From Tolypothrix carrinoi HA7290-LM1 (lineage in GTDB: Bacteria; Cyanobacteriota; Cyanobacteriia; Cyanobacteriales; Nostocaceae): a stretch of DNA of 17,621 bases. Positions within the stretch are counted from its first letter, which is position 1. The number at the start of each line of letters is the position of its first letter. The notes under the pieces were generated by a model. The model was given only the letters and a program-made list of their open reading frames with translations. It was not told where the DNA came from and made no database searches. This document shows, piece by piece, positions 1 through 17,202 of the stretch. The translations under genes and the position numbers were made by a program. The DNA lies in assembly GCA_019358935.1 (NCBI GenBank), contig JAHHIK010000142.1, positions 1 to 17,621 on the forward strand. Reading direction: 5' to 3'.

Positions 1-121
1 GTCTGCGGGAAGCATGAAGCAACTAGGTCAAGCGAAACGTCGAAAATCTCAGGCTGAAATTGCTAATAATGACTTGGGGAATGTAGAAACCCCAAGCTCA
101 GGCGAAGCCAGCTTGGGGTAG
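1..121 (+). CDS. tnpB: 3' end (partial, cut by window edge) of a probable TnpB RNA-guided endonuclease of an IS200/IS605-family element
   Basis: Frame +2 is open from the window edge to TAG at 119-121 (SAGSMKQLGQAKRRKSQAEIANNDLGNVETPSSGEASLG*). This resembles the C-terminal tail of cyanobacterial TnpB proteins and overlaps a typical right-end hairpin. RuvC motifs lie outside the window. Confidence 0.62.
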   Translation, partial: SAGSMKQLGQAKRRKSQAEIANNDLGNVETPSSGEASLG

Positions 122-126
122 TTCAT
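86..126 (+). mobile_element. IS200/IS605-family right end (subterminal hairpin plus TTCA(T) cleavage site); 3' part of the predicted omegaRNA scaffold
   Basis: GAAA followed by a perfect 10-bp stem ACCCCAAGCT(89-98)/AGCTTGGGGT(110-119) with an inner GGC-GAA-GCC hairpin, then AGTTCAT. Sequence switches abruptly to IS110 coding sequence at about 127. Confidence 0.72.
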
Positions 127-1015
127 CTCAAATGAACATACAACTGCATCAAGCCGGAGCGTGATATTACAGGCACTACAGGAATGGCAATCAGACGAGC
201 GATTGTCGCTGGGGAACGTGACCCACAAGTACTTGCTGCCAAAAAACACCACCGTGTCAAACGTAGTGAAGCTGAAATTGCTGCAGCGCTCAATGGTGAT
301 TACCGCAAAGAACACTTGTTTGTTTTACAACAAGAGTTACAACTGTATGATTTTTACCAAACCCAAATTGTAGATTGTGACCGTCAGATTGAGGACTGCC
401 TAGCTCAATTTGACGATAAAGTTGATATTTCACAATCTCCCCTTAAACAACCCAAACACCTTCGTCATCAACCTCAAGGTAATGAACCTGCCTTTGATTT
501 GCACACCTCACTTTACCGGATGAGTGGTGTAGATTTTACTCGTGTTGATGGTCTTGGTGTCCTGACAGTACAAATTATTCTCTCTGAGGTTGGTTTAGAC
601 CCCTCTCGATTTCCCACAGTTAAGCACTTTACTTCCTGGCTTGGTGCAATGCCTGTGGCAGTCGCATCACTGGTGGCAAAGTTAAAAGTCAAGAGACCCG
701 TCCGGTTGTTAATCGTGCAGGAAGATGCTTTCCGCATGGCAGCACAGACTGCGGGCAAGAGTCATTCTGCTAGTGGTGCATTTTATCGTCGCTTACGTTC
801 TCGACTTGGTGCTCCCAAAGCCATTACTGCTACCGCTCATAAAGAACGCACGTATTTTCTACAAACTTTGGACAACAGGAGGAGATTATACCGATCCTGG
901 TATGGATTATTATGAGCAGCGCTACCGAGAGCGAATGGTCAATAATCTTCAGAAAAAAGCTCATTCTTTTGGCTTTGAGCTTATTCCTCAGCCTTCAGCA
1001 AATACGGTTTCTTAG
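127..1015 (+). pseudogene. IS110-family transposase, 5'-interrupted and frameshifted
   Basis: Stitched frames give QMNIQLHQ / DITGTTGMAIRRAIVAGERDP...GVDFTRVDGLGVLTVQIILSEVGLDPSRFPTVKHFTSWLG / GSRITGGKVK / AFRMAAQ...FYRRLRSRLGAPKAITATAHK / ARIFY...YYEQRYRERMVNNLQKKAHSFGFEL. Frameshifts occur near 157, 650-720 and 845. The N-terminal DEDD part is missing from the window. Confidence 0.9.
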
Positions 1016-1101
1016 AAGAGGGAAAACGCCACATGCAGAAAGTCTGTCGCTTCTAGCCTTAACGCGATCGCAGTGGCTCTTCTCTTGCAGTGCTGGACTC
1101 A

Positions 1102-2436: not shown

Positions 2437-4209
2437 ATGGTTAATCAGACATACACGGCTGATGTTTTAGTTGTCGGTGGGGGAACCGGCGGAACTGCTG
2501 CTGCTATCCAAGCAGCGCGAAGAAAAGCAAAAACTATCCTGGTGAGCGAATTTCCTTGGTTGGGGGGAATGCTGACTTCAGCCGGGGTGTCTGCACCCGA
2601 TGGTAATGAATTAGAAGCATTTCAGACAGGTTTATGGGGTGAGTTTTTGCGAGAATTGCGTTCTCGACAGCCAGGAGGATTAGACAATAGTTGGGTAAGC
2701 TTTTTTAGTTACGATCCCCGCATTGGGGCGGCGATTTTTGCCGATTGGGTGCGAGAATTACCAAATCTGCATTGGATTGCTGGCAAAGTTCCCTTAGAAG
2801 TTTTGCGACAGGCAGATTGTGTTACTGGCGTTCGCTTTGCTGATTTTACTGTCAAAGCTAAGATTATTCTCGACGGCACAGAATTAGGAGATTTATTAGC
2901 TTTGGCGGAAATACCTCACCGTTGGGGTTGGGAATTGCAATCTCAGTGGCAAGAACCAAGCGCCCCAGCAAATTATAATTATATCACAGAAAAATATCCT
3001 GTGCAAGCGCCGACTTGGGTTGTGATGATGCAAGATTTTGGTGAAGAAGAACGACAAGAAATTGAGAAAGCACCCAATCAAGATTTATCAATGTTTGCAG
3101 GCGCTTGGGATGATTATGGTGCCGAGAAGTTTTTGAATTACGGACGCTTACCGGGGGGGCTGTTGATGATAAATTGGCCCATCTGTGGCAATGACTACGG
3201 CAAAGAAGTCGGGCGTTTGATAGAGTCAGAGACATCAAAAAGTGAGTTTTTACAAGAATGTCGCTGGCACAGCCAAAATTTTGCCCATTTTATCCAAAAT
3301 CAGCTAGGTCATCGCTACGGCTTGGCAGAACAAGTTTTTCCCGAATACCGAAATTCCAGCACGGCTTACGCCCTACATCCCTACTACCGGGAAAGCCGCC
3401 GTTTGGTGGGACTAACTACTGTGCGAGAACAGGATATTTTGCCGATCGCTCTTGGTAGAGTTGCATCCTTAAATATCGAAGCAATCGCTATTGGTAATTA
3501 CGCCAATGACCACCATTATCCCGGAGTCAACTACCAGCTACAACCCAAATCTATCCGCTGGGGGGGACGTTGGACAGGAACTCCCTTTACAATTCCTTAC
3601 CGTTGTTTAATACCCGCGCAAACGGATGGTTTATTGGTGTGTGAAAAAAATATCTCTGTATCGCATATCACTAATGGGGCAACAAGATTGCAACCTGTGG
3701 TAATGGGCATCGGTCAAGCGGCAGGAATGGCAGCTGCTATGTGCGTTGAATTGAACATTCAGCCGAGAGATTTACCTGTGAGAATGCTGCAAAATGCTTT
3801 GTTGCAAGACTTACATTCTCCGGCTACAATCGTTCCATTATTCAATTTACCGCCCGATCATCCGGAATGGCTGGACTGGCAACTGTATTACTTAGACAAC
3901 CCAGATGCTTATCCAGCTACTGGAAATTGTCCCATTTCATCTAATATTCAGTACAGTAACTTGCAAAATCAATACGTACAATCACTTAAAGAAGAATATT
4001 TCCGGGGCATCTTCCATCGCCTAGATCGGCAAGATTACAGATTTAGCATCACCACAGCAACTCAAAACCAATTGTTTTTACAACTTGTGACCTTGCGATC
4101 GCATATAGACGAGCAACTGCAAAATTTTATTGATAAGCAACCGCTACAAATTTGCGGTTCCTGGAATCGTGCTGGTAATTGGTTATTAGTTGAACATATT
4201 GAAAAATAA
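2437..4209 (+). CDS. FAD-dependent oxidoreductase (590 aa)
   Basis: N-terminal Rossmann motif DVLVVGGGTGGTAAAIQAAR, plus LGGMLT, YYRESRR, IPYRCLIP and ATRLQPVVMGIGQAAG motifs. Confidence 0.92.
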   Translation: MVNQTYTADVLVVGGGTGGTAAAIQAARRKAKTILVSEFPWLGGMLTSAGVSAPDGNELEAFQTGLWGEFLRELRSRQPGGLDNSWVSFFSYDPRIGAAIFADWVRELPNLHWIAGKVPLEVLRQADCVTGVRFADFTVKAKIILDGTELGDLLALAEIPHRWGWELQSQWQEPSAPANYNYITEKYPVQAPTWVVMMQDFGEEERQEIEKAPNQDLSMFAGAWDDYGAEKFLNYGRLPGGLLMINWPICGNDYGKEVGRLIESETSKSEFLQECRWHSQNFAHFIQNQLGHRYGLAEQVFPEYRNSSTAYALHPYYRESRRLVGLTTVREQDILPIALGRVASLNIEAIAIGNYANDHHYPGVNYQLQPKSIRWGGRWTGTPFTIPYRCLIPAQTDGLLVCEKNISVSHITNGATRLQPVVMGIGQAAGMAAAMCVELNIQPRDLPVRMLQNALLQDLHSPATIVPLFNLPPDHPEWLDWQLYYLDNPDAYPATGNCPISSNIQYSNLQNQYVQSLKEEYFRGIFHRLDRQDYRFSITTATQNQLFLQLVTLRSHIDEQLQNFIDKQPLQICGSWNRAGNWLLVEHIEK

Positions 4210-7552: not shown

Positions 7553-7756
7553 ATGTCTACCCAAGAAAAAGCGCGTGCTTTGATGATGCGTCATTACCAG
7601 CTGGTCAAGAATCGTCAACAATCGATGCTGGAACGTGTTGGTGAAGAACTTGGTCTTCCTGCTGGCGAAGCATCCCATTACTGGAACCCGATTCAAGGCA
7701 AGATAGATCCTACCGTTCGTATGACTTACGATCGCAGCAATGCCACAATGAGCTAG
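7553..7756 (+). CDS. gifA: Glutamine synthetase inactivating factor IF7
   Basis: 67 aa, MSTQEKARALMMRHYQLVKNRQQSMLER signature, GAGGA RBS, convergent with glnA. Confidence 0.93.
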   Translation: MSTQEKARALMMRHYQLVKNRQQSMLERVGEELGLPAGEASHYWNPIQGKIDPTVRMTYDRSNATMS

Positions 7757-7832
7757 GGACTCTAAATGTGTCTTATTAACGTAGTGAGCGATTTATCGCT
7801 CAATTTAATCAGAACAACCCAAGTTCCTAGTC

Positions 7833-7861
7833 AAAAAAAAAGCCACCACTAAAGGTGGCTT
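7833..7861 (-). terminator. Intrinsic terminator of glnA
   Basis: Stem AAGCCACC/GGTGGCTT (7840-7847 / 7854-7861) followed on the minus strand by a T-run (A-run 7833-7841 on plus). Confidence 0.8.
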
Positions 7862-7939
7862 AATTATGTTCTCAAATACCGCATTTGGGCTGAGGTGAGG
7901 ATTGCTATTTTCAGCAACGCTTACTCAATGCGTATCCTT

Positions 7940-7998
7940 GATTTAAGCGTTGAAACGCTTACGCTCAATTAAGATTTAAGCGTTTCAACGCTTACTAC
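7940..7998. repeat. Two tandem REP-like palindromes in the glnA 3' UTR
   Basis: GATTTAAGCGTTGAAACGCTTAC (7940-7962) and GATTTAAGCGTTTCAACGCTTAC (7973-7995). The minus strand starts with GTAG at 7998, and a related GTAGTGAGCGATTTATCGCTCA lies at 7781-7802. Confidence 0.75.
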
Positions 7999-7999
7999 T

Positions 8000-9415
8000 T
8001 TAACAATCGTAGTAAAGACCAAATTCGTAAGGATGAGGACGCAGACGCATTGGGTTAACTTCGTTATCTAACTTGTAAGAAATCCAAGTTTGAATGAAGT
8101 CTTCAGTAAACACACCTGGTTCTGTTAAGAAAGCATGATCGTTCTCTAATGCTTCCAATGCCAATTCTAAAGAACCGGGTGTGGAAGGAACCTTAGCCAG
8201 TTCTTCTGGGGAGAGTTCATAGATATTCTTATCTAGAGGTTCACCAGGATGGATTTTGTTCTTGATACCATCTAAACCAGCACAAAGCATCGCAGCGAAT
8301 GCCAAGTAAGGGTTAGAAGTCGCATCCGGACAACGGAATTCTAAGCGTTTTGCTTTGGGGTTATTGCCGGCAAGAGGAATACGGATAGAAGCTGAACGAT
8401 TACCTTGGGAATAAGCTAAGTTTACAGGTGCTTCATAACCAGGTACTAAGCGCTTGTAAGAATTAGTGGTAGGGTTGGTGATTGCTAACAGTGCGGGTGC
8501 GTGTCTGAGGATACCACCAATGTAATGCAGCGCCATTTCGCTCAAACCAGCGTATTTATCGCCTGCAAATAAAGGTTGACCGTCTTTCCAGATAGACTGG
8601 TGACAGTGCATCCCAGAACCGTTATCGCCGAAGATTGGCTTGGGCATGAAGGTAACGGTTTTGCCGTATTTCTTGGCAACGTTCTTGATGACATATTTGT
8701 AAGTCATCAGCCAGTCAGCAGCTTCGATTAATTTACCAAAGCGGAAACCGAGTTCGCATTGTCCACCGCTAGCGACTTCGTGGTGCTGTTTTTCAATGGG
8801 TACGCCGCATTTTGCCATTGTCAGCAGCATTTCTGTGCGGATGTCTTGGAAAGTGTCGGTGGGGGGAACTGGAAAGTAACCTTCTTTGAAGCGCGGTTTG
8901 TAACCTAGGTTGGGACCTTCTTCTCTACCGGAATTCCAACGACCTTCTACAGAGTCTACATAATAGTAGCCGGAGTTAGCGTTTTGGTCAAAGCGGACAT
9001 CATCAAAGATGAAAAATTCAGCTTCTGGACCAAAGAAAACAGTGTCACCAATGCCCGAAGAAACCACGTAGTCTACTGCTTTTTGGGCAATAACGCGGGG
9101 ACAGCGATTGTAAGGTTCACCTGTACGCGGTTCTTGAATGCTACAAATTATACTCAGCGTCGGCTCTGCCATGAACGGATCGATCCAGGCTGTGTTCGGG
9201 TCAAGAACCATTGACATGTCTGATTCGTTGATCGCTTTCCAACCCCGAATGCTGGAACCGTCGAAAGGTACACCCTCAGTAAATGAACTCTCATCAATTT
9301 GGTTATGAAACACCGTGAGGTGCTGCCAAGTTCCTGGCGTATCGATGAATTTCAGATCGATCATCTGAATGTTGTTGTCCTGAATCATCTTCAAGACTTC
9401 TTGTGGGGTTGTCAT
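8000..9415 (-). CDS. glnA: Glutamine synthetase type I
   Basis: [62 protein letters not shown]. Confidence 0.99.
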
Positions 9416-9511
9416 GGTTACTCCTTGTATGCTTATTTACTAAGGTAGAACTGAAATTTTCAATGCATTCTGACCCTGCTTGGTGAAACCAAATTGTGAG
9501 ATACCTGGAAT

Positions 9512-9554
9512 ATCCTAGAGATAGGACATCAGGTAGTTTTGTTGCATAAGCTAC
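9512..9554 (-). promoter_or_regulatory. NtcA-activated-type promoter of glnA with a variant box
   Basis: Minus strand GTA-GCTTATGC-AAC (9554-9541), 23-nt spacer, then -10 TAGGAT (9517-9512). Confidence 0.7.
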
Positions 9555-9770
9555 AAAAACTCATGATTAAAGTTTATATTTACCTTTGCTTAACGAGTTT
9601 CACAAAACTTAACAGTTCATTTCACAGGGTCAACTTTGACATAGAATCCTTATGTGCCGATGGATTATTTTTTGTGCTGAGACTTTTGCCGTAGCACAAA
9701 AATTTATAGGCGCATAAAAGCAGCCAGATAAATATCAAACCATAAATAGGATTGATTGGGAGAAAAAGGA

Positions 9771-10280
9771 ATGCGGGATGCAGTAACAAGTTTAATTAAG
9801 AATTATGACGTAGCTGGACGGTATTTTGACCGGAATGCGATCGACAGTCTCAAGTCTTACTTTGAAAGTGGTACAGCACGAGTACAAGCAGCTGGGGCAA
9901 TTAATTCTAATGCGGCGTCGGTTGTCAGACAGGCTGGTTCTCGCTTATTTGAAGAACAGCCGGAGTTGATTCGTCCTGGTGGAAATGCTTACACTACTCG
10001 TCGCTATGCGGCTTGTCTGCGGGATATGGATTACTATTTGCGCTACGCTACTTATGCGCTGGTTGCTGGTAGTATGGATGTTCTAGATGAGCGGGTGCTG
10101 CAAGGGCTGCGGGAAACTTACAATTCTTTGGGTGTGCCTATTGGTCCGACGGTTCGCGGTATCCAGATTATGAAGGATATTATTAAGGAGCAAGTGGCGG
10201 CAGCTGGTGTTGCTAATACTGCTTTTTTGGATGAGCCTTTTGATTATATGACGCGGGAGTTGAGCGAGCAGGATATTTAG
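9771..10280 (+). CDS. apcF: Allophycocyanin beta-18 subunit (169 aa from the ATG at 9771)
   Basis: MRDAVTSLIKNYDVAGRY, RPGGNAYTTRRYAACLRDMDYYLRYATYA; divergent from glnA. Confidence 0.96.
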   Translation: MRDAVTSLIKNYDVAGRYFDRNAIDSLKSYFESGTARVQAAGAINSNAASVVRQAGSRLFEEQPELIRPGGNAYTTRRYAACLRDMDYYLRYATYALVAGSMDVLDERVLQGLRETYNSLGVPIGPTVRGIQIMKDIIKEQVAAAGVANTAFLDEPFDYMTRELSEQDI

Positions 10281-10316
10281 TTTTTATTCGGGGTTCGCCT
10301 CAGAAGATAAAATAGG

Positions 10317-10345
10317 GCGAGTTTCTTTTGGAGACTCGCTTTTTT
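10317..10345 (+). terminator. Intrinsic terminator after apcF
   Basis: GCGAGTTTC...GAGACTCGC stem followed by TTTTTT. Confidence 0.75.
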
Positions 10346-10381
10346 ACGAACCGCGAAGACGCAAAGGGCACGAAGAGAAGA
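10346..10381 (+). repeat. Dispersed purine-rich repeat (CGAACCGC...ACGCA family)
   Basis: ACGAACCGCGAAGACGCAAAGGGCACGAAG, related to copies at 14056 and 17310. Confidence 0.65.
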
Positions 10382-11194
10382 TTGGTTAAGCAGCGATTGG
10401 ATATGTTGTTGGTGGAGTTAAATTTGTGTGCTTCCCGCGCTTTGGCGCAACGGTTGATTCAAGCGGGGGAGGTGACTGTTAATCAACAAGTTGTGGATAA
10501 GGCGGGGACGGTGGTTGATGTGGCGGCGGATATTAAGATTAAGGAGCGATCGCGTTTTGTCTCTCGTGGCGGTGAGAAGTTGGCGAAGGCTTTAGAATTT
10601 TTTAATATTTCTGTGTCAGGACGGGTTTGTTTGGATGGCGGTATTTCGACGGGAGGCTTTACTGATTGTCTTTTACAAGCTGGGGCAAAGCTAGTTTACG
10701 GGGTTGATGTGGGTTACGGTCAAGTTGATTGGCGTTTGCGAAATGATTCGCGGGTGGTTTTGCGGGAACGCACTAATTTACGACAACTGCAACCGCATGA
10801 GTTATATGGTGAGGCTCAAAAAGCTGATTTGGCGGTGGTGGATGTTTCGTTTATTTCTTTAACCAAGATTTTGCCTGCTTTGTGGGAGTTAACTCAATCT
10901 CAGAGAGAAGCAGTTTTACTGGTGAAGCCACAATTTGAGGTTGGTAAGTCCCGTGTGGGGAAAAAAGGCGTTGTTCGTGATTCTGGTGACCAAGCTGAGG
11001 CAATTTTTCAGGTTTTGCAAACTGCTCAAAATTTAGGATGGAAGTACAAGGGTTTAACTTGGTCGCCGATCACTGGTCCTGCTGGGAATATTGAATATCT
11101 TTTGTGGCTGGATATGGAAAGCGAAACACCACCGCCTAATTTAGAAGCTATTCAGCAAGTTACAAAGTCTGCTGTTGCTGAATTGAGAAATTAA
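10382..11194 (+). CDS. tlyA: TlyA-family rRNA methyltransferase (S4 + FtsJ domains); probable TTG start at 10382
   Basis: KQRLDMLLV, FVSRGGEKL, LDGGISTGGFTDCLLQ, DVSFISL, LVKPQFE, SPITGPAGNIEYL. The longer ORF start at 10328 runs through a terminator and a repeat. Confidence 0.93.
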   Translation: MVKQRLDMLLVELNLCASRALAQRLIQAGEVTVNQQVVDKAGTVVDVAADIKIKERSRFVSRGGEKLAKALEFFNISVSGRVCLDGGISTGGFTDCLLQAGAKLVYGVDVGYGQVDWRLRNDSRVVLRERTNLRQLQPHELYGEAQKADLAVVDVSFISLTKILPALWELTQSQREAVLLVKPQFEVGKSRVGKKGVVRDSGDQAEAIFQVLQTAQNLGWKYKGLTWSPITGPAGNIEYLLWLDMESETPPPNLEAIQQVTKSAVAELRN

Positions 11195-11469
11195 AGGTCG
11201 TAGATTAGACATTCTACTGCTTCTGGATGGCGATCGCAGTAGCTTTCTAAAGAAGATTTGCCTTTTGTTTTTTGGTTTTTGTGAGATTTCTCTGCTTGCA
11301 ATTCTTCGACGATATCCCAAGCTACAGCGCAGTTAGCAGAATTGCTACCGCTGAGATCGCAGGTTTGACGGGCTTCTGCAATAGCATCAAAAATCACTTC
11401 TTCAAGGGTTTTGCTTTGATTCTCGACGGAGTTAATAGCAGCCTGGACTACGTTTGAGATGTCAGCCAT
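11191..11469 (-). CDS. cp12: Calvin-cycle regulator CP12 with both Cys pairs
   Basis: C...C-AVAWDIVEEL core and C-terminal YCDRHPEAVECLIYD. Stop codon overlaps the tlyA stop (TTAA 11191-11194). Confidence 0.93.
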   Translation of the reverse strand: MADISNVVQAAINSVENQSKTLEEVIFDAIAEARQTCDLSGSNSANCAVAWDIVEELQAEKSHKNQKTKGKSSLESYCDRHPEAVECLIYDL

Positions 11470-11592
11470 GATACTTACCTTTGTGTGTTGATTTAGAAAT
11501 CGACTGCGAGCTTCTGAATTATTTCAGGTGCTTAATTTCTAGTTTAGACAAGCTTCACATTAAATGCCGGTAGGAAAACCGTCCATGCGTTT

Positions 11593-11677
11593 GGGGAAGG
11601 GGAAGGGGGAGGGGGGGAGGGGGACAGGGGGAGAGGGGGACAAGGGGGACAAGGGGGACAAGGGGGACAGGGGGGAA
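11593..11677. repeat. G-rich 9-mer tandem repeat (GGGGGACAA-like)
   Basis: Visible tandem units. Confidence 0.9.
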
Positions 11678-11804
11678 AGAAATATCCTTTACACTTTGAT
11701 TGCTGTAGATGCTAGCAAAAAGCTGTATCTCAAAATGGCTCTGTTGACAAGTTATTGTAAGATGTTGAAAAAATTTAACAAACTTGAGATAAATTGACAA
11801 AATC

Positions 11805-11952
11805 TAATTGGGTAATTGGTAATTGGTAATTGGTAATTGGTAATTGGTAATTGTTCTTTCTCCCCATCCCCCCCTGTCCCCCTCTCCCCCTGTCTTTGAA
11901 AGTCCCCCCATCTCCCCATTCCCGATTCCCCATTACCCATTACCCATTCCCA
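11805..11952. repeat. STRR block: (TAATTGG)n, then a C-rich 9-mer, then (CCCATT[C/A])n
   Basis: Visible tandem units; the last units overlap the GTPase stop codon. Confidence 0.9.
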
Positions 11953-13289
11953 ATTTTTAATTCTTGCCGCAAGCGGTACAAAATTGTATTTTGGTCAACT
12001 TGGGATAAAATTTCTTGAATGACGGTGCTAGCGCCCAATTGACCCCATGTGCAGCCTTTTTTCAGATACTCTTGTGCGGCTTTACCGATCGCATAGGCGC
12101 CATAACCGGCGATACCAGCTTGAGCGATCGCACTTCCGGCGAAGGCTGTTATATTGGTGGGATTTTCACCACTGGCTAAGGCGGTGGCACTTTTGCCTAA
12201 GCCTAAAAGCACGCTGCTTCCTAATTCTCCCAAAAGTAAACCGCCAGAACTAAATAAAATTGTCTTAAGAAGTGAACCTGCTTCGTAACCGGTCATCGGT
12301 AAGCCGTATAATCTTGCTAAGGAGCGAATTAACGCTAAGTCGGCAACACTTCCGCCAACGACATCTAAAAAGGCGATGGGATTTAAGCCGACTGCTAAAG
12401 CTTTATATTTGGTAAACTGCCAAATCAGGTCTTCTGCTTGTTGTTCGCGTAAGTCGATAGTTTTTTGAGCGATCGCTGTTTCTGCATCTCTTGCTTGAAT
12501 CAGTGCATTTAAGGCGAGAAGCGATCGCCCTTCGCGATTGAGAATATTTAAAATTGTCTGTTTGAGTTCCTCTACTTGAATTGGTGGTGTCTCCCATTCA
12601 TAAGTTACACGTCCATCAGTCCACTCAACCCGTACTTCCATTAGCGCAGGTTCCGCTGCTACCATGACAATTTCATCTGGTAATAGTGGCTTTTGTTGGG
12701 GATGTCCTGCACCGAGTTGTTGCAAATTTTTATAAATAGCTGTTCTATCTGTATCTGGATACAAGTCTATTTTGTTAAATACAAGAATTAGGGGTTTTTG
12801 CGATCGCCGCAATTCTAGCAGTGCTTGATACTCCGTCTGCGTAATATCACCAGACACGACAAACAATATCAAATCAGCTTGCTGCGCTACATCTCGCGCC
12901 ATTTGCCCTCTTACCTCACCCTGAATTTCATCTAATCCGGGGGTATCAATTAATTCTACCTGAACCTTGCCGCCAGGAGTCCACCGCAGGGAACGAGGAT
13001 ACTGAGTTACGCCGTTAAGGGGACCTGTTTGGAGAATTTTTTGTCCCACTAAGGCGTTTAACACTGCGGACTTACCACGACTGACTAAACCAAAAGCGGC
13101 AATTCTAATTACGTTAGAGTCGAGCTTATTGAGAGTATTCGTCAATATTTCTAATTCTGGTTTGACAAAAGATGCTAATTCCAGGTTTGATTGCGGTTGT
13201 CCTGGCTTGCGAAGATATCCATACCAAGACAGCACTTGTCTGAGACTAGCACGAGCGCGATTTAAATGAGTTTCTTGGAGATTAGGCAC
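11940..13289 (-). CDS. Era/MMR1-like GTP-binding protein with a C-terminal DUF697/YcjF-like domain; probable GTG start at 13289 (ORF extends to 13355)
   Basis: G1 GLVSRGKS, G2 GVT, G3 DTPG, G4 NKID, hydrophobic NPIAFLDV region. Confidence 0.88.
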   Translation of the reverse strand: MPNLQETHLNRARASLRQVLSWYGYLRKPGQPQSNLELASFVKPELEILTNTLNKLDSNVIRIAAFGLVSRGKSAVLNALVGQKILQTGPLNGVTQYPRSLRWTPGGKVQVELIDTPGLDEIQGEVRGQMARDVAQQADLILFVVSGDITQTEYQALLELRRSQKPLILVFNKIDLYPDTDRTAIYKNLQQLGAGHPQQKPLLPDEIVMVAAEPALMEVRVEWTDGRVTYEWETPPIQVEELKQTILNILNREGRSLLALNALIQARDAETAIAQKTIDLREQQAEDLIWQFTKYKALAVGLNPIAFLDVVGGSVADLALIRSLARLYGLPMTGYEAGSLLKTILFSSGGLLLGELGSSVLLGLGKSATALASGENPTNITAFAGSAIAQAGIAGYGAYAIGKAAQEYLKKGCTWGQLGASTVIQEILSQVDQNTILYRLRQELKIGNG

Positions 13290-13518
13290 GTTCTTGCCTT
13301 TGTTATAACAAGCTACATATCTATTTTGATTCAATTCCATAACAAAACTCAGCAATGCCTAAAAGCGCTACTGAGTTATTAATTATTTAATTATCCACAA
13401 TCTGTGGTTAATTACACGTTTGAATTATGCGATGTCTATTAATATAAGTTAGATAAAATTGCGCTTTTCTGATAGAGTTTAATTATCAGCCAGAAATAAA
13501 AATTCCTGGCTTAGATAT

Positions 13519-13848
13519 CTATCGCCAAGTCCGGTTTCCGTCTTCGTCAGTTCTTGCTTGACGAATGACATCGGAAATTTCTTCCGCATCTTTTACGTGG
13601 TGAAGTGCTTTTTGTTCACCATCTGGTTCATCGACAACAAAATAAGTCGGTACTGTGATATGCTCGCCTGTGATGTCTGGTGAATCTACTGCAATTTGTT
13701 GAGCTTTTTCTTCAACTGATTCTGGCTTATCATCAATCACATCTCCGGGATTGACTGTCGCGTTCTTTTCTTTAGGTGTTGGTTCTTCTCTGGATTCTAT
13801 AGTTGGGCTTACTGGTTGCTTAATTTCATTTTCTGATTGATTAGCCAT
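13519..13848 (-). CDS. Acidic hypothetical protein (109 aa)
   Basis: ATG start, coherent D/E-rich composition and a downstream hairpin AGCCAGAAAT/ATTCCTGGCT (13488-13511). Confidence 0.75.
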   Translation of the reverse strand: MANQSENEIKQPVSPTIESREEPTPKEKNATVNPGDVIDDKPESVEEKAQQIAVDSPDITGEHITVPTYFVVDEPDGEQKALHHVKDAEEISDVIRQARTDEDGNRTWR

Positions 13849-13961
13849 AATCTTTAATTTTCCAGAATTCGTCTACTAACATTACTTTATAGAATCAAAG
13901 CCGTGAAGAGTTCCTTCTCAAGAAAGACTTTGAGCATACGACTAAATGAGGAATTTATTAG

Positions 13962-13980
13962 TTGACACTCCCACGGCTTA
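13962..13980 (-). mobile_element. Remnant half of an IS200/IS605-like right end
   Basis: Minus strand TAAGCCGTGGGAGTGTCAA resembles the 3' arm plus TCAA terminus of such ends; the 5' arm is missing where a REP hairpin now sits. Confidence 0.4.
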
Positions 13981-13986
13981 AAGTAA

Positions 13987-14022
13987 GTAGGGTGCGTTAT
14001 GGCTTGGCCTAACGCACCCTAC
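13987..14022. repeat. GTAG-headed REP-like perfect hairpin
   Basis: GTAGGGTGCGTTA-N10-TAACGCACCCTAC. Confidence 0.85.
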
Positions 14023-14029
14023 ATAAATA

Positions 14030-14165
14030 TAGGACTTACGCAACAGTCATGAAAAACGAACCGCAGAGGACGCAGAGAAGCCAGCGCGTTGCGGGGGTTC
14101 CCCCTGTTGTAGCGACTGGCGCGACACAGAGGAATGAGGAAGAGGGAATTTTTGCGTAAGTTCTA
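14030..14165. mobile_element. MITE-like element (136 bp) with a nested 45-bp insert
   Basis: TIRs TAGGACTTACGCAA (14030-14043) and TTGCGTAAGTTCTA (14152-14165), one mismatch; flanked by AAATA direct repeats (14025-14029, 14166-14170). Confidence 0.75.
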
Positions 14166-14171
14166 AAATAG

Positions 14172-15176
14172 TTACTTTTGAGGTTGAAATGGTGTATACT
14201 TACCGCCTAGAGCCTCAACAATGGTGCGGGTATTCGCTTCCATCATTTTGATGTAGGAATCGCCTTCGCTTCCAGGGGCACCAATTGAATCAGAATAAAG
14301 TTGACGCGGTGCTAGTTTGACGTTGGCTTCTTGGGCAACTGTGGTAATTAAAGCTGGATTAATCGTTGTTTCGGCAAAAATTGCGGGAACGCCAATCTTT
14401 TTAACTGACTCTACCAAACGTTGTACTGTTTGAGCGCTGGGTTGTTCTTCGGTGCTGATGCCAATTAAAGTTCCGGCGATCGCTATTCCATAACCGCGTC
14501 CATAATATTGAAATGCATCGTGGGTTGTTATCAGTTTGCGTTTCTCAGGTGGGATAGTTGCAATTTCTTGTTTTATCCAACTATCCAACTGTTGTAATTC
14601 TTTACTTAGTTGCGTTGCGTTTTGGGTAAATTTCTCTTTATCTTCTGGCGATAACTCTATTAAAGCATCCCGAATCGCGTTTACCATCGCTCGTGCATTC
14701 TCTGCGTTACCCCAAACATGCGGATCTGGTACTATTTCACCTTTACCTTTATCTAACTGCAAAGGCTTGACAACTTCCCCCACTGCAACCTGACGCGCTT
14801 TTCCTCCAGTAGCTTTCATGATTTTAATCAGTCCCGGTTCCAGATTGTAGCCGTTATACAAAATCAAGTTAGCTTCTTCTAAAAATCTACTATCTTCTGG
14901 TCTTGGTTCATATACGTGCGGATCTGTACCGGGTTTGAGGATTCCCGTCAGCTTAATTTCGTCTTTGCCAACATCTTGCGCTAAGTCAGCAATGATGGTA
15001 CTTGTCGCGACTACTAACGGTTTGCCATCTGCGTTTGGGGTGTTACGGTTATTTGCTTGGGTACAACTAAGTAAGGTAAAGGGTAAAAGGCAAAAGGTAA
15101 AAGTAATGATTGTTTTCAGCTTTTGAGCTTTTGTCTGGCTAGAGGTGCGGACTTCTGTCTGGGGTATTATTTCCAT
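14172..15176 (-). CDS. mntC: Mn ABC transporter substrate-binding lipoprotein
   Basis: LLSC lipobox, VVATSTII, DPHVYEP, DPHVW, HDAFQYY, LYSDS; no His-rich Zn loop; ManR-type box upstream. Confidence 0.85.
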   Translation of the reverse strand: MEIIPQTEVRTSSQTKAQKLKTIITFTFCLLPFTLLSCTQANNRNTPNADGKPLVVATSTIIADLAQDVGKDEIKLTGILKPGTDPHVYEPRPEDSRFLEEANLILYNGYNLEPGLIKIMKATGGKARQVAVGEVVKPLQLDKGKGEIVPDPHVWGNAENARAMVNAIRDALIELSPEDKEKFTQNATQLSKELQQLDSWIKQEIATIPPEKRKLITTHDAFQYYGRGYGIAIAGTLIGISTEEQPSAQTVQRLVESVKKIGVPAIFAETTINPALITTVAQEANVKLAPRQLYSDSIGAPGSEGDSYIKMMEANTRTIVEALGGKYTPFQPQK

Positions 15177-15207
15177 TTATATCTGATATTGCTTCCAATT
15201 ATAGATG

Positions 15208-15226
15208 TTTTCATATTTGTCTCATA
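15208..15226 (-). promoter_or_regulatory. ManR-type direct-repeat operator in the mntC/mntAB divergent promoter
   Basis: Minus strand TATGAGAC-AAA-TATGAAAA, matching the (T/A)ATGA(G/A)A(A/G) x2 pattern with a 3-nt spacer and one mismatch. Confidence 0.8.
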
Positions 15227-15265
15227 TTTATAGTAAGCTCAAGGAAAGCAATATTTAACTTCGTT

Positions 15266-16087
15266 ATGAAAACTGTCTCGTACCCGAAATTTGATTTATC
15301 CAAAAGGAACCCAGGCAAGATGCCTTTAGAAGTTGTCACAAGTGAGGCAAATTCCGCTGAAGCGATTAACATTGCTCATTTAGGGGTACACTACCGCACG
15401 CAAGAAGCTCTGAGAGACGTTAATTGTATTATTAAGCCAGGGAGACTAACAGGAATTTTTGGTCCCAACGGTGCCGGTAAAAGTACGCTGATGAAAGCGA
15501 TGTTGGGATTGGTTCCCGCTAGCCGTGGTACAGTGTTGTATCACGGTAAACCTTTGATGCAGCAACTTGAGAAAGTTGCTTATGTACCGCAGCGATCGCA
15601 AATCGACTGGACTTACCCCGCTACCGTTTGGGATGTGGTGATGATGGGACGAGTCAAGAAAACAGGTTGGTTTCGTAACTTCTCCACAGTTAGCCGTCAG
15701 GTAGCGAAAAGTGCTTTAGAAAGAGTTGGGATGAGCGAATATAGCGATCGCCCAATTGGACAACTTTCTGGAGGACAACAGCAACGAGTATTTTTAGCCC
15801 GTGCTTTAACCCAAGAAGCGGAAATTTTCTGCTTTGATGAACCGCTTGTAGGGATAGATCAGAAAACCCAGTCAGTAGTTTTTCAAGTTTTTGGTGAACT
15901 CGCTGCCGCTGGTAAAATCGTCTTGGTTGTCAACCACGACTTAGGCGAATCAATCACCCACTTTGACGATTTGATTTTGTTAAATCGCGACTTAATCGCC
16001 ACAGGAAGCCGCCAACAAGTGCTAACTGAAGACAATTTGTCAAGTGCCTATGGTGGGAAAGTTATTTACTTTTCTGATGCAGCGTAA
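15266..16087 (+). CDS. mntA: Mn ABC transporter ATP-binding protein
   Basis: [33 protein letters not shown]. Confidence 0.88.
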
Positions 16088-16250
16088 ATTGGGAATTGGG
16101 CATTGGGCATTGGGCATTGGGCATTGGGCATTGGGCAATGGGCAATGGGCATTGGGCATTGGTAATTGTCCCCCTTGTCCCCCTTGTCCCCCTTGTCCCC
16201 CTTGTCCCCCTTGTCCCCCCCTCTCCCCCTTCCCCCCCTCCCCTCCTCCC
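16088..16250. repeat. STRR block: (TTGGGCA)n then (TGTCCCCCT)n and a C-rich tail between mntA and mntB
   Basis: Visible tandem units. Confidence 0.92.
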
Positions 16251-16275
16251 TTGACGGTTCGTATTACAAATAATT

Positions 16276-17202
16276 ATGCTTCAATCATTAATTGAGCCGT
16301 TGCAATATGGCTTTATGCAGCGATCGCTTGTAATTGCGATTTTAGTTGGTTTGTTGTGTGCGATTGTTGGCAGCTATTTGATGGTGCAGCGATTAGCTTT
16401 GCTGGGTGATGCTATCAGTCACTCGGTTTTGCCAGGATTGGCGATCGCCTTTTTGTTGGGTGGAAATATTTTTATTGGGGCATTTATTGCGGGTGTCATC
16501 AGTACAATGGCGATCGCTTGGATTAAAACGCGATCGCCTATCAAAGAAGACGCAGCAATGGGGATAGTTTTTTCAGCATTTTTTGCTCTTGGTGTCACTC
16601 TAATTACTGTCATTCAAAAAGATAATAAAATTGACCTCAACCACTTTCTTTTTGGTAATATTCTCAGTGTGACAGTTGACGAAGTTAGAGACACATCAAT
16701 CATCGCTGCGATAGTGTTGCTAGTCGTCTTTTTATTATACAAAGAACTGTTATTTTACACCTTTGACCCTTTAGGCGCTCAAGCTGCTGGATTGCCAGTA
16801 AATCGGCTGAATTTTGGATTAATGCTGCTGATTGCTTTAACAATTGTCGCCAGCATGAAAGCTGTAGGTGTGATTTTAGTTTTATCACTTTTAATAACAC
16901 CAGGAGCAACTGCTTATCTATTAGTTAAACGCTTGCATCAAGTAATGATTTTGGGGGCAGGAATTGGCGTAATTTCTAGTATTAGCGGTATGTATCTGAG
17001 CTATTTTTATAATTTGCCCTCAGGACCTGCGATTGTTTTGGTAGTATCAGGATTGTTTTTCTTGACATTTTTATTTAGTCCCCAACACGGTGTTTTTACT
17101 TATCGTCAAGGAAATTTATCTCGCGTAAAGATAAGCCAGCGCCGTGCGGGGGTGGAGGAGTTTGAGGCGATGAAAGCGCAAATACGCGAAGAAGAACAAT
17201 AA
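16276..17202 (+). CDS. mntB: Mn ABC transporter permease
   Basis: [43 protein letters not shown]; multiple transmembrane segments. Confidence 0.88.

Follow-up and report, generated by a model that had tools for sequence, protein, structure and literature searches.

An IS605-type element nested in an IS110 pseudogene of Tolypothrix carrinoi and its predicted IS110-derived guide

TnpB is the ancestor of Cas12, and TldR repressors, TnpB-family proteins with gene-matching guides, are defined by an inactivated RuvC, a fixed guide and a lost transposon context. The closest described relatives of the element presented here are ISDra2 and ISGst2-4. As far as the reports on them go, these combine a Y1 TnpA with TnpB, insert 3' of a 5-nt TAM (TTGAT and TTTAT are the ones described), bear subterminal hairpins, have a right end overlapping the 3' end of tnpB and take their guide from the flank (PMC8612924; 10.1101/2023.03.14.532601). 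In ISDra2, the last ~16 nt of the RNA are described as flank-derived and the TAM as equal to the insertion motif (PMC8612924; also PMC10278001), and in ISGst elements end motif and TAM are described as differing at positions 3 and 5 (10.1101/2023.03.14.532601). An IS605 element residing in repeated or mobile DNA gains, according to one preprint, a guide against every uninterrupted copy of that DNA, 'plasmids and other MGEs' being the wording used (10.1101/2025.02.20.638934). Such insertion into a mobile element is one proposed route by which TnpB-type nucleases gained a defensive role, a question on which the present locus bears; in the same preprint the route is shown so far for plasmids. In the literature searched, mostly open-access and with preprints taken without supplements, no report of a TnpB guide directed against IS110 was found, and the word 'IS110' occurs zero times in PMC10691335.

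The window, i.e. the whole stretch of DNA analysed (17,621 nt), is the entire contig C142 of a 7.96-Mb, 184-contig assembly of Tolypothrix carrinoi HA7290-LM1. From its letters alone, a tnpB element had been predicted to lie inside an IS110 transposase gene. This layout is confirmed, with the correction that the window begins at a contig end, the body of the IS605-type element lying outside. The relevant features are as follows.

1..126, + strand: right end of an IS605-type element present in several copies (tnpA and tnpB, 1,982 nt); the start of contig C149 and the end of contig L081 match it at 100% identity
2..121, + strand: 3'-terminal 39 codons of tnpB with the stop, the same as in the 452-aa ORF of L081
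89..119, + strand: subterminal right-end hairpin (z -5.2), arms paired in 54 of 54 related ends
122..126, + strand: end motif TTCAT, found in 11 of 11 copies of genome G028 and at 54 of 54 further loci
127..146, + strand: predicted 16-20-nt guide, IS110 coding sequence reading TQMNIQL in intact copies
127..1020, + strand: 3' part of an IS110-group element, covering its gene for a 457-aa recombinase from codon 164
1013..1015: stop of the IS110 gene, the right end of the IS110 copy lying at about 1018-1020 as placed by three copies of genome G205
2437..4209: FAD oxidoreductase gene (PF12831)

The boundary of the element lies at 126|127. Sequences of relatives align either to 1-126 or from 127 onward, their ends after tnpB being 70-88% identical to 1-126, and C149 starts with bases 3-126 identically, after which the two contigs diverge. 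In G028, all 11 copies have GGTAGTTCAT as their last letters, with differing flanks behind it. At 54 of 54 other loci GGTAGTTCA is followed by T, only this final base of the end motif having been left free in the search pattern and the rest fixed. The predicted element end at 126, with IS110 sequence directly behind it, is thus borne out. The hairpin predicted at 89-119 stood up equally well: its arms (89-98/110-119) fold with -13.4 kcal/mol as DNA, and none of 200 shuffled sequences equalled them. Its variable arms pair in all six distinct variants, as 83 of 10,000 shuffles do equally well. A left-end hairpin was noted by eye only. Window frame +2 reads SAGSMKQLGQAKRRKSQAEIANNDLGNVETPSSGEASLG with the stop TAG at 119-121, and because 1-126 equal the end of L081, the TnpB-like frame ending at 121 had been recognized correctly, with the 39 residues on their own matching no Pfam family. 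Bases 1-126 are predicted to form the 3' part of the omegaRNA scaffold; against Rfam, the window yielded nothing at gathering score, nor did 1-400 at E up to 5. Among relatives (L008-L024), the tnpB stop varies in place, from 69 nt short of the right end to 2 nt past it. Such a floating stop in otherwise conserved DNA suggests RNA or DNA structure as a constraint on the tail.

The body of the element is represented by L081, a 1,987-nt contig. One of its termini matches C142 and C149, the other C26, C38 and C58, all with 100% identity. We take L081 to be the collapsed element of the present strain, or an identical one; tnpB was thus read from this collapsed contig and not separately from the copy in C142. 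L081 contains a 139-aa TnpA ORF (NF033573, 130 bits, cut-off 55), with what we take to be HVH and Y..Q motifs, and, divergent from it, the 452-aa TnpB ORF (NF040570 guided_TnpB, 229 bits, cut-off 100; on the narrower NF038281 model 162 of 425, under the cut-off). Both frames are open. The closest full relative of TnpB fetched shows 88% protein identity, and the best natural match of solved structure has an E value of 1e-23, which, together with the length of 452 residues, distinguishes this protein from those of ISDra2 and ISGst2-4. D188, E283 and D375, along with the CxxC pairs CPKC 347 and CKNC 365, are present; judged by motif, we presume them to be the RuvC D-E-D triad and a zinc finger. 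A full tnpB with intact RuvC D-E-D, sought leftward of the window, is therefore present in the collapsed contig, and TnpB apparently is an intact nuclease. A promoter scan of L081 found 8 sites (4.4 expected). In one relative (L019:1-950, minus strand), an ORF replaces the 5' part of tnpB. It carries what we take to be reverse-transcriptase and HNH-like motifs, presumably those of a group II intron-like sequence.

The apparent integrity of TnpB bears on one suggestion made in the original prediction, that a nuclease-dead, TldR-like TnpB represses transcription of IS110. The locus resembles TldR systems in pairing a TnpB-family protein with a gene-matching guide, and since the copies are collapsed in L081, the tnpB of C142 itself could differ from the one read. 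Against this, TnpB has the triad and both CxxC pairs, and the element retains an intact tnpA as well as its two ends. The element is mobile, its guide differs at each copy rather than being fixed, the site lies in the middle of a gene and the target is absent from the assembly. As TnpB is not dead, we regard repression as so unlikely that its chance is close to negligible.

The element appears to have spread in this strain. At least five copies are present, their right ends being followed by different flanks in C142, C149, L079, L080 and L082; four records were recovered when metagenome contigs were scanned, namely the right ends L079, L080 and L082 with new flanks and L081 itself. TTTAA precedes all four left ends found in the strain (C26, C38, C58 and a stub of IS110) and 11 left ends of relatives (L018, L025, L039, L040 and seven further loci). 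The left-end motif itself was found in 8 of the sufficiently long loci among the 54, with a loose pattern that missed others. The insertion motif, and hence the TAM, of the element is TTTAA, other than the motifs described for ISDra2 and ISGst2-4; TTCAT differs from it at positions 3 and 5, the same positions as in ISGst elements. With a Y1 HUH TnpA, tnpB, fixed motifs and subterminal hairpins, the element belongs to the IS605 group. Those genomes with related elements that carry names are mostly of filamentous cyanobacteria. A near-complete element of this cyanobacterial family was also seen under a Saprospiraceae label (L106), either through bin contamination or through transfer.

What also sets the locus apart from ISDra2 and ISGst2-4 is that one flank is the coding sequence of another transposon. 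From position 127 on, the window shares 85% identity with an intact IS110 element in contig L007; the protein of this element, a DEDD plus Transposase_20 recombinase, reaches 274 bits on NF033542 (cut-off 140). On the left, the non-coding end of the family measures about 280 nt, the right end being very short, and the family thus resembles bridge-RNA recombinases of the IS110 group such as IS621, in which the same domains and the same long left and short right ends are described (PMC11208160). Unlike IS621, the window copy is interrupted, frameshifted and apparently devoid of its DEDD half. Only a C-terminal part of its protein remains (69 bits, under the NF033542 cut-off). The flank had been predicted to be IS110 coding sequence, and so it is, with the correction that it contains five +1 frameshifts, near 153-160, 645, 653, 723 and 843. 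These lesions mean that the IS110 gene is broken independently of the insertion. In X1, a sequencing run flagged as the possible source, the copy is present at single-copy depth.

Some of these lesions recur elsewhere (records L056, L074 and L052). The one at 153-160 is repeated letter for letter in two copies of genome G017 and is missing from a closer copy in X2, a data set from another organism, and the one near 723 (716-726) is repeated letter for letter in a 68%-identical IS110 of genome G135. Being common to separate lineages, these lesions look like site-specific recurrent change and not shared ancestry.

At the insertion site, the intact IS110 of L007 reads AAAGC TTTAA|CTCAAATG. The right junction of the window is restored to TTTAA|CTCAAATG of intact copies without target duplication, and the prediction that the insertion motif, acting as TAM, precedes the site in intact IS110 copies has proved right. 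The left flank is rearranged. Contigs of X1 and X2 were aligned to L007 at 80% likeness. In X1, a 2,814-nt contig (depth 562) runs from the non-coding end of IS110 to L007 position 982, which is 29 nt short of the start codon, and there passes into TTTAA and the left end of the element. A second X1 contig of like depth (520) begins at L007 1501, which is the window junction. The far side of the element had been expected to hold the 5' half of the same IS110 gene. It is indeed IS110, but the non-coding end about 515 nt upstream is found instead of the 5' half, an outcome that tells in part against the original prediction by its own terms.

With the left end of the element joined ~515 nt further upstream, the catalytic half of the recombinase appears to have been deleted. 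The simplest reading is one insertion and a loss of about 515 nt that took away the ribosome-binding site, the start codon and codons 1-163 with the DEDD domain. No X1 contig covers L007 1028-1483; such a hole in cover proves nothing, so the deletion call rests on the two junctions. Alternatively, two elements may have inserted separately, at two TTTAA sites of one IS110 or in two copies of it, the middle having been either kept or recombined away. The full TTTAA at the left junction would fit this, and the missing cover does not speak against it, as the collapsed repeat hides how the two flanks are paired and leaves their pairing a matter of probability. However, none of 14 relatives read has TTTAA at the upstream position of the left junction, and a 3-nt TTT microhomology between a T-run there and the downstream TAM explains the joint, which favours deletion. 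Two insertions would also require an extra mutation and an extra insertion. We find them possible, if rather doubtful; they would alter neither the guide nor our verdict. Either way, the restored empty site reads TTTAA followed by the guide.

By the precedent of ISDra2 and the 126|127 boundary, the guide is predicted to span 127-142 to 146, in agreement with the position of 127-146 given in the original prediction. Of the 388 other family genomes, 13 contain TTTAA with all 20 nt of this guide, at 15 exact places in total. With 16 nt and up to two mismatches, there are 30 places in 25 of 389 family genomes, the window included, and all 15 exact 16-nt targets remain exact across 20 nt. One exact target resides on NZ_CP040275.1, a plasmid typed as conjugative. 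The exact TAM and 16-nt site is missing from 375 of the 388 other genomes, absence thus being the norm.

No such target was found in the assembly of the strain itself. Among 35,234 TTTAA sites in its contigs of at least 10 kb, none is followed by the guide when 1 mismatch is allowed over 12 nt, 3 over 16 or 5 over 20. At two sites, 2 of the first 12 nt differ from the guide and the sequences diverge beyond. The guide target is also absent from the viral contigs searched. The claim that intact IS110 sisters carry TAM plus target therefore holds for other genomes and fails for the assembly of the host. The shortest contig of that assembly is 10,054 nt, and repeats and short unique pieces are missing from it, so that repeated IS110 copies may be hidden. 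X1 indeed contains a more distant IS110 at depth 1,559, about three times chromosomal, which is not in the assembly; compared over guide positions 3-20, it has mismatches at 3, 12 and 18.

Other IS110 sequences in the assembly are remnants. The only other close one, on C78, is 88% identical to L007 and starts 3' of the target site; the DNA interrupting it is a different one, and it shows an additional gap of 65 nt. C96 carries an IS110 with 60% protein identity, itself truncated, and short 3' pieces lie on C67, C9 and C94. Searches of the assembly for the IS110 5' half (PF01548, blastn and tblastn) returned the C96 protein and three weak unrelated matches. The left end of the family is absent from the assembly as well, which is no proof given that short contigs were dropped.

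C96 was considered as a target and rejected: it matches window 129-150 over 22 nt, but reads GCTTA where the TAM should be and is mismatched to the guide at position 2. With ISGst TnpB, single TAM changes are described to abolish cleavage (10.1101/2023.03.14.532601). The match in this 66%-identical sister (C96:713-734 of genome G000; record L001), perfect over guide positions 3-24, could be an escape allele or chance. The next-longest run in the same alignment is 17 nt, so the 22-nt match is no clear sign of conversion.

Could the element nevertheless have spread by homing, with TnpB cutting intact sisters and recombination copying the element in, as a drive through the IS110 family? Cut-and-copy is established in published descriptions for sister chromosomes (10.1101/2023.03.14.532601) and for multicopy plasmids (10.1101/2025.02.20.638934), and the described plasmid drive resembles the present locus in having a guide against uninterrupted copies of the host DNA. 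It differs in that the target here is an insertion sequence and not a replicon, and that the element sits in a pseudogene from which one arm is apparently deleted, with no drive to be seen. The junction contig has single-copy depth, meaning that no second converted copy is seen, and none was found in the other genomes searched. The left homology arm beside the cut appears deleted, identity between the right arm and intact copies in other genomes is only 84-88%, and no uninterrupted sister with TAM and target exists among the contigs of at least 10 kb. Homing is highly improbable on these grounds.

Recurrence of the insertion was not seen either. A degenerate junction pattern had no match in the genome_contigs and metagenome_contigs collections, from which our own records were possibly left out. 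Among 111 IS110 matches to the 500 nt around the site (80 of 389 genomes, two candidates scored per genome), a break at the site occurs once, in the window itself. None of 58 other loci of the element adjoins IS110. Of 68 flanks, 44 yielded 56 open frames, none with a match to a transposase family, while in the remaining 24 no frame at the junction reached 45 codons. Landing in a transposase gene is thus uncommon, about 1 in 70. TTTAA is found once per 226 bp and four times in an intact IS110, frequently enough for the insertion site to need no special cause, and a pseudogene is a neutral landing place. The notion that a family of IS110 sisters is cut or homed into within the genome of the host is therefore unsupported: the IS110 copy is frameshifted and single, no TAM-flanked target was found in the assembly, a deletion apparently adjoins the insertion and the junction was met in no other genome searched.

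A more far-reaching alternative is that the element acquired immunity against IS110 and that this immunity has acted. Active TAM-bearing sisters would have been cut, copies lacking the site would have survived, and the family, plasmid-borne members included, would now be kept out. The exact site of TAM and 20 nt does exist in 15 copies from 13 genomes, one on the conjugative plasmid, and both close remnants of the strain (C142 and C78) are without an intact site. Moreover, X2 holds one uninterrupted, closer IS110 over L007 800-2391 at about twice the flank depth, sharing many of the differences of the window from L007 and lacking the first frameshift. TnpB defence by the same logic is also described for plasmids (10.1101/2025.02.20.638934). 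However, we are dealing with a single event whose junction does not recur, the five frameshifts suggest that the host IS110 died earlier, the different interruption and 65-nt gap of C78 are explained by ordinary decay, and 375 of 388 family genomes lack the site just the same. We consider immunity of this kind unlikely. It is likewise improbable that the genome has been shaped by it, the basis for that being one other remnant without the site. Nor do we give much credence to the family-invariant IS110 site serving as a natural 'spacer' against another RNA-guided transposon, by which resident copies were cleared and arrivals, those on conjugative plasmids included, are cut.

Ordinary nested insertion into a lone decaying IS110, with the guide serving retention of the element at its excision site, is the explanation we hold to be probable. 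An autonomous IS605-type element, spreading in a cyanobacterium, would have inserted 3' of TTTAA by the ordinary choice of TnpA into an IS110 that, as far as the order of events can be inferred, was probably decaying already, and ~515 nt left of the insertion would have been lost. The last 16-20 nt of the omegaRNA would come from the flank, as at the other sites of the element. By analogy with ISDra2 and ISGst, TnpB would cleave the site vacated by the element on excision, whereby the element would be regained. The IS110-derived guide would then be a by-product without other target in the present assembled genome, and an incoming intact copy of the same IS110 family would be cut, again as a by-product. 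Several points speak against nested insertion: landing in a transposase is uncommon (0 of 58 loci, 0 of 56 frames), IS110 copies may be hidden, as the depth-1,559 copy in X1 exemplifies, and the target region is missing from C78 too, the one further close remnant, as would be expected after a purge. In addition, the comparison of matches around the site scored two candidates per genome, and the two flanks are linked through a collapsed repeat.

All parts of the locus are of known kinds. As known at present, it is one insertion in a pseudogene, with no selection for the guide to be seen; by analogy, it would turn a known mechanism, the cutting of empty homologous sites by TnpB, on a new kind of target, namely incoming IS110 copies. 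The locus offers a natural test for insertion sequences as targets, with an apparently intact TnpB, a defined TAM and end, a natural guide and perfect targets in 13 genomes and on a conjugative plasmid, and adds a multi-copy cyanobacterial TnpB with well-mapped ends. Were the immunity reading true, one insertion sequence would possess CRISPR-like acquired immunity against another without an array.

The remainder of the window was inspected as well. Upstream of the FAD oxidoreductase gene, seven relatives are all different in a comparison of synteny. The stretch from IS110 to this gene (1020-2425) is missing from most relatives in the genus, and pieces of it, 70-81% alike, are found on C102 and C146; it is probably more mobile debris. 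Further on, there is what we take, by likeness, to be a glutamine synthetase gene (8000-9415, minus strand), adjoining a small ORF (7553-7756) presumably like an inactivating factor, and an allophycocyanin-like gene (9756-10280). TlyA-like methyltransferase and CP12 genes, presumably, also lie within 7553-17202, and 14172-17202 would encode a metal ABC transporter by the same kind of likeness. Short tandem repeats are present near 11,600-11,900 and 16,100-16,250.
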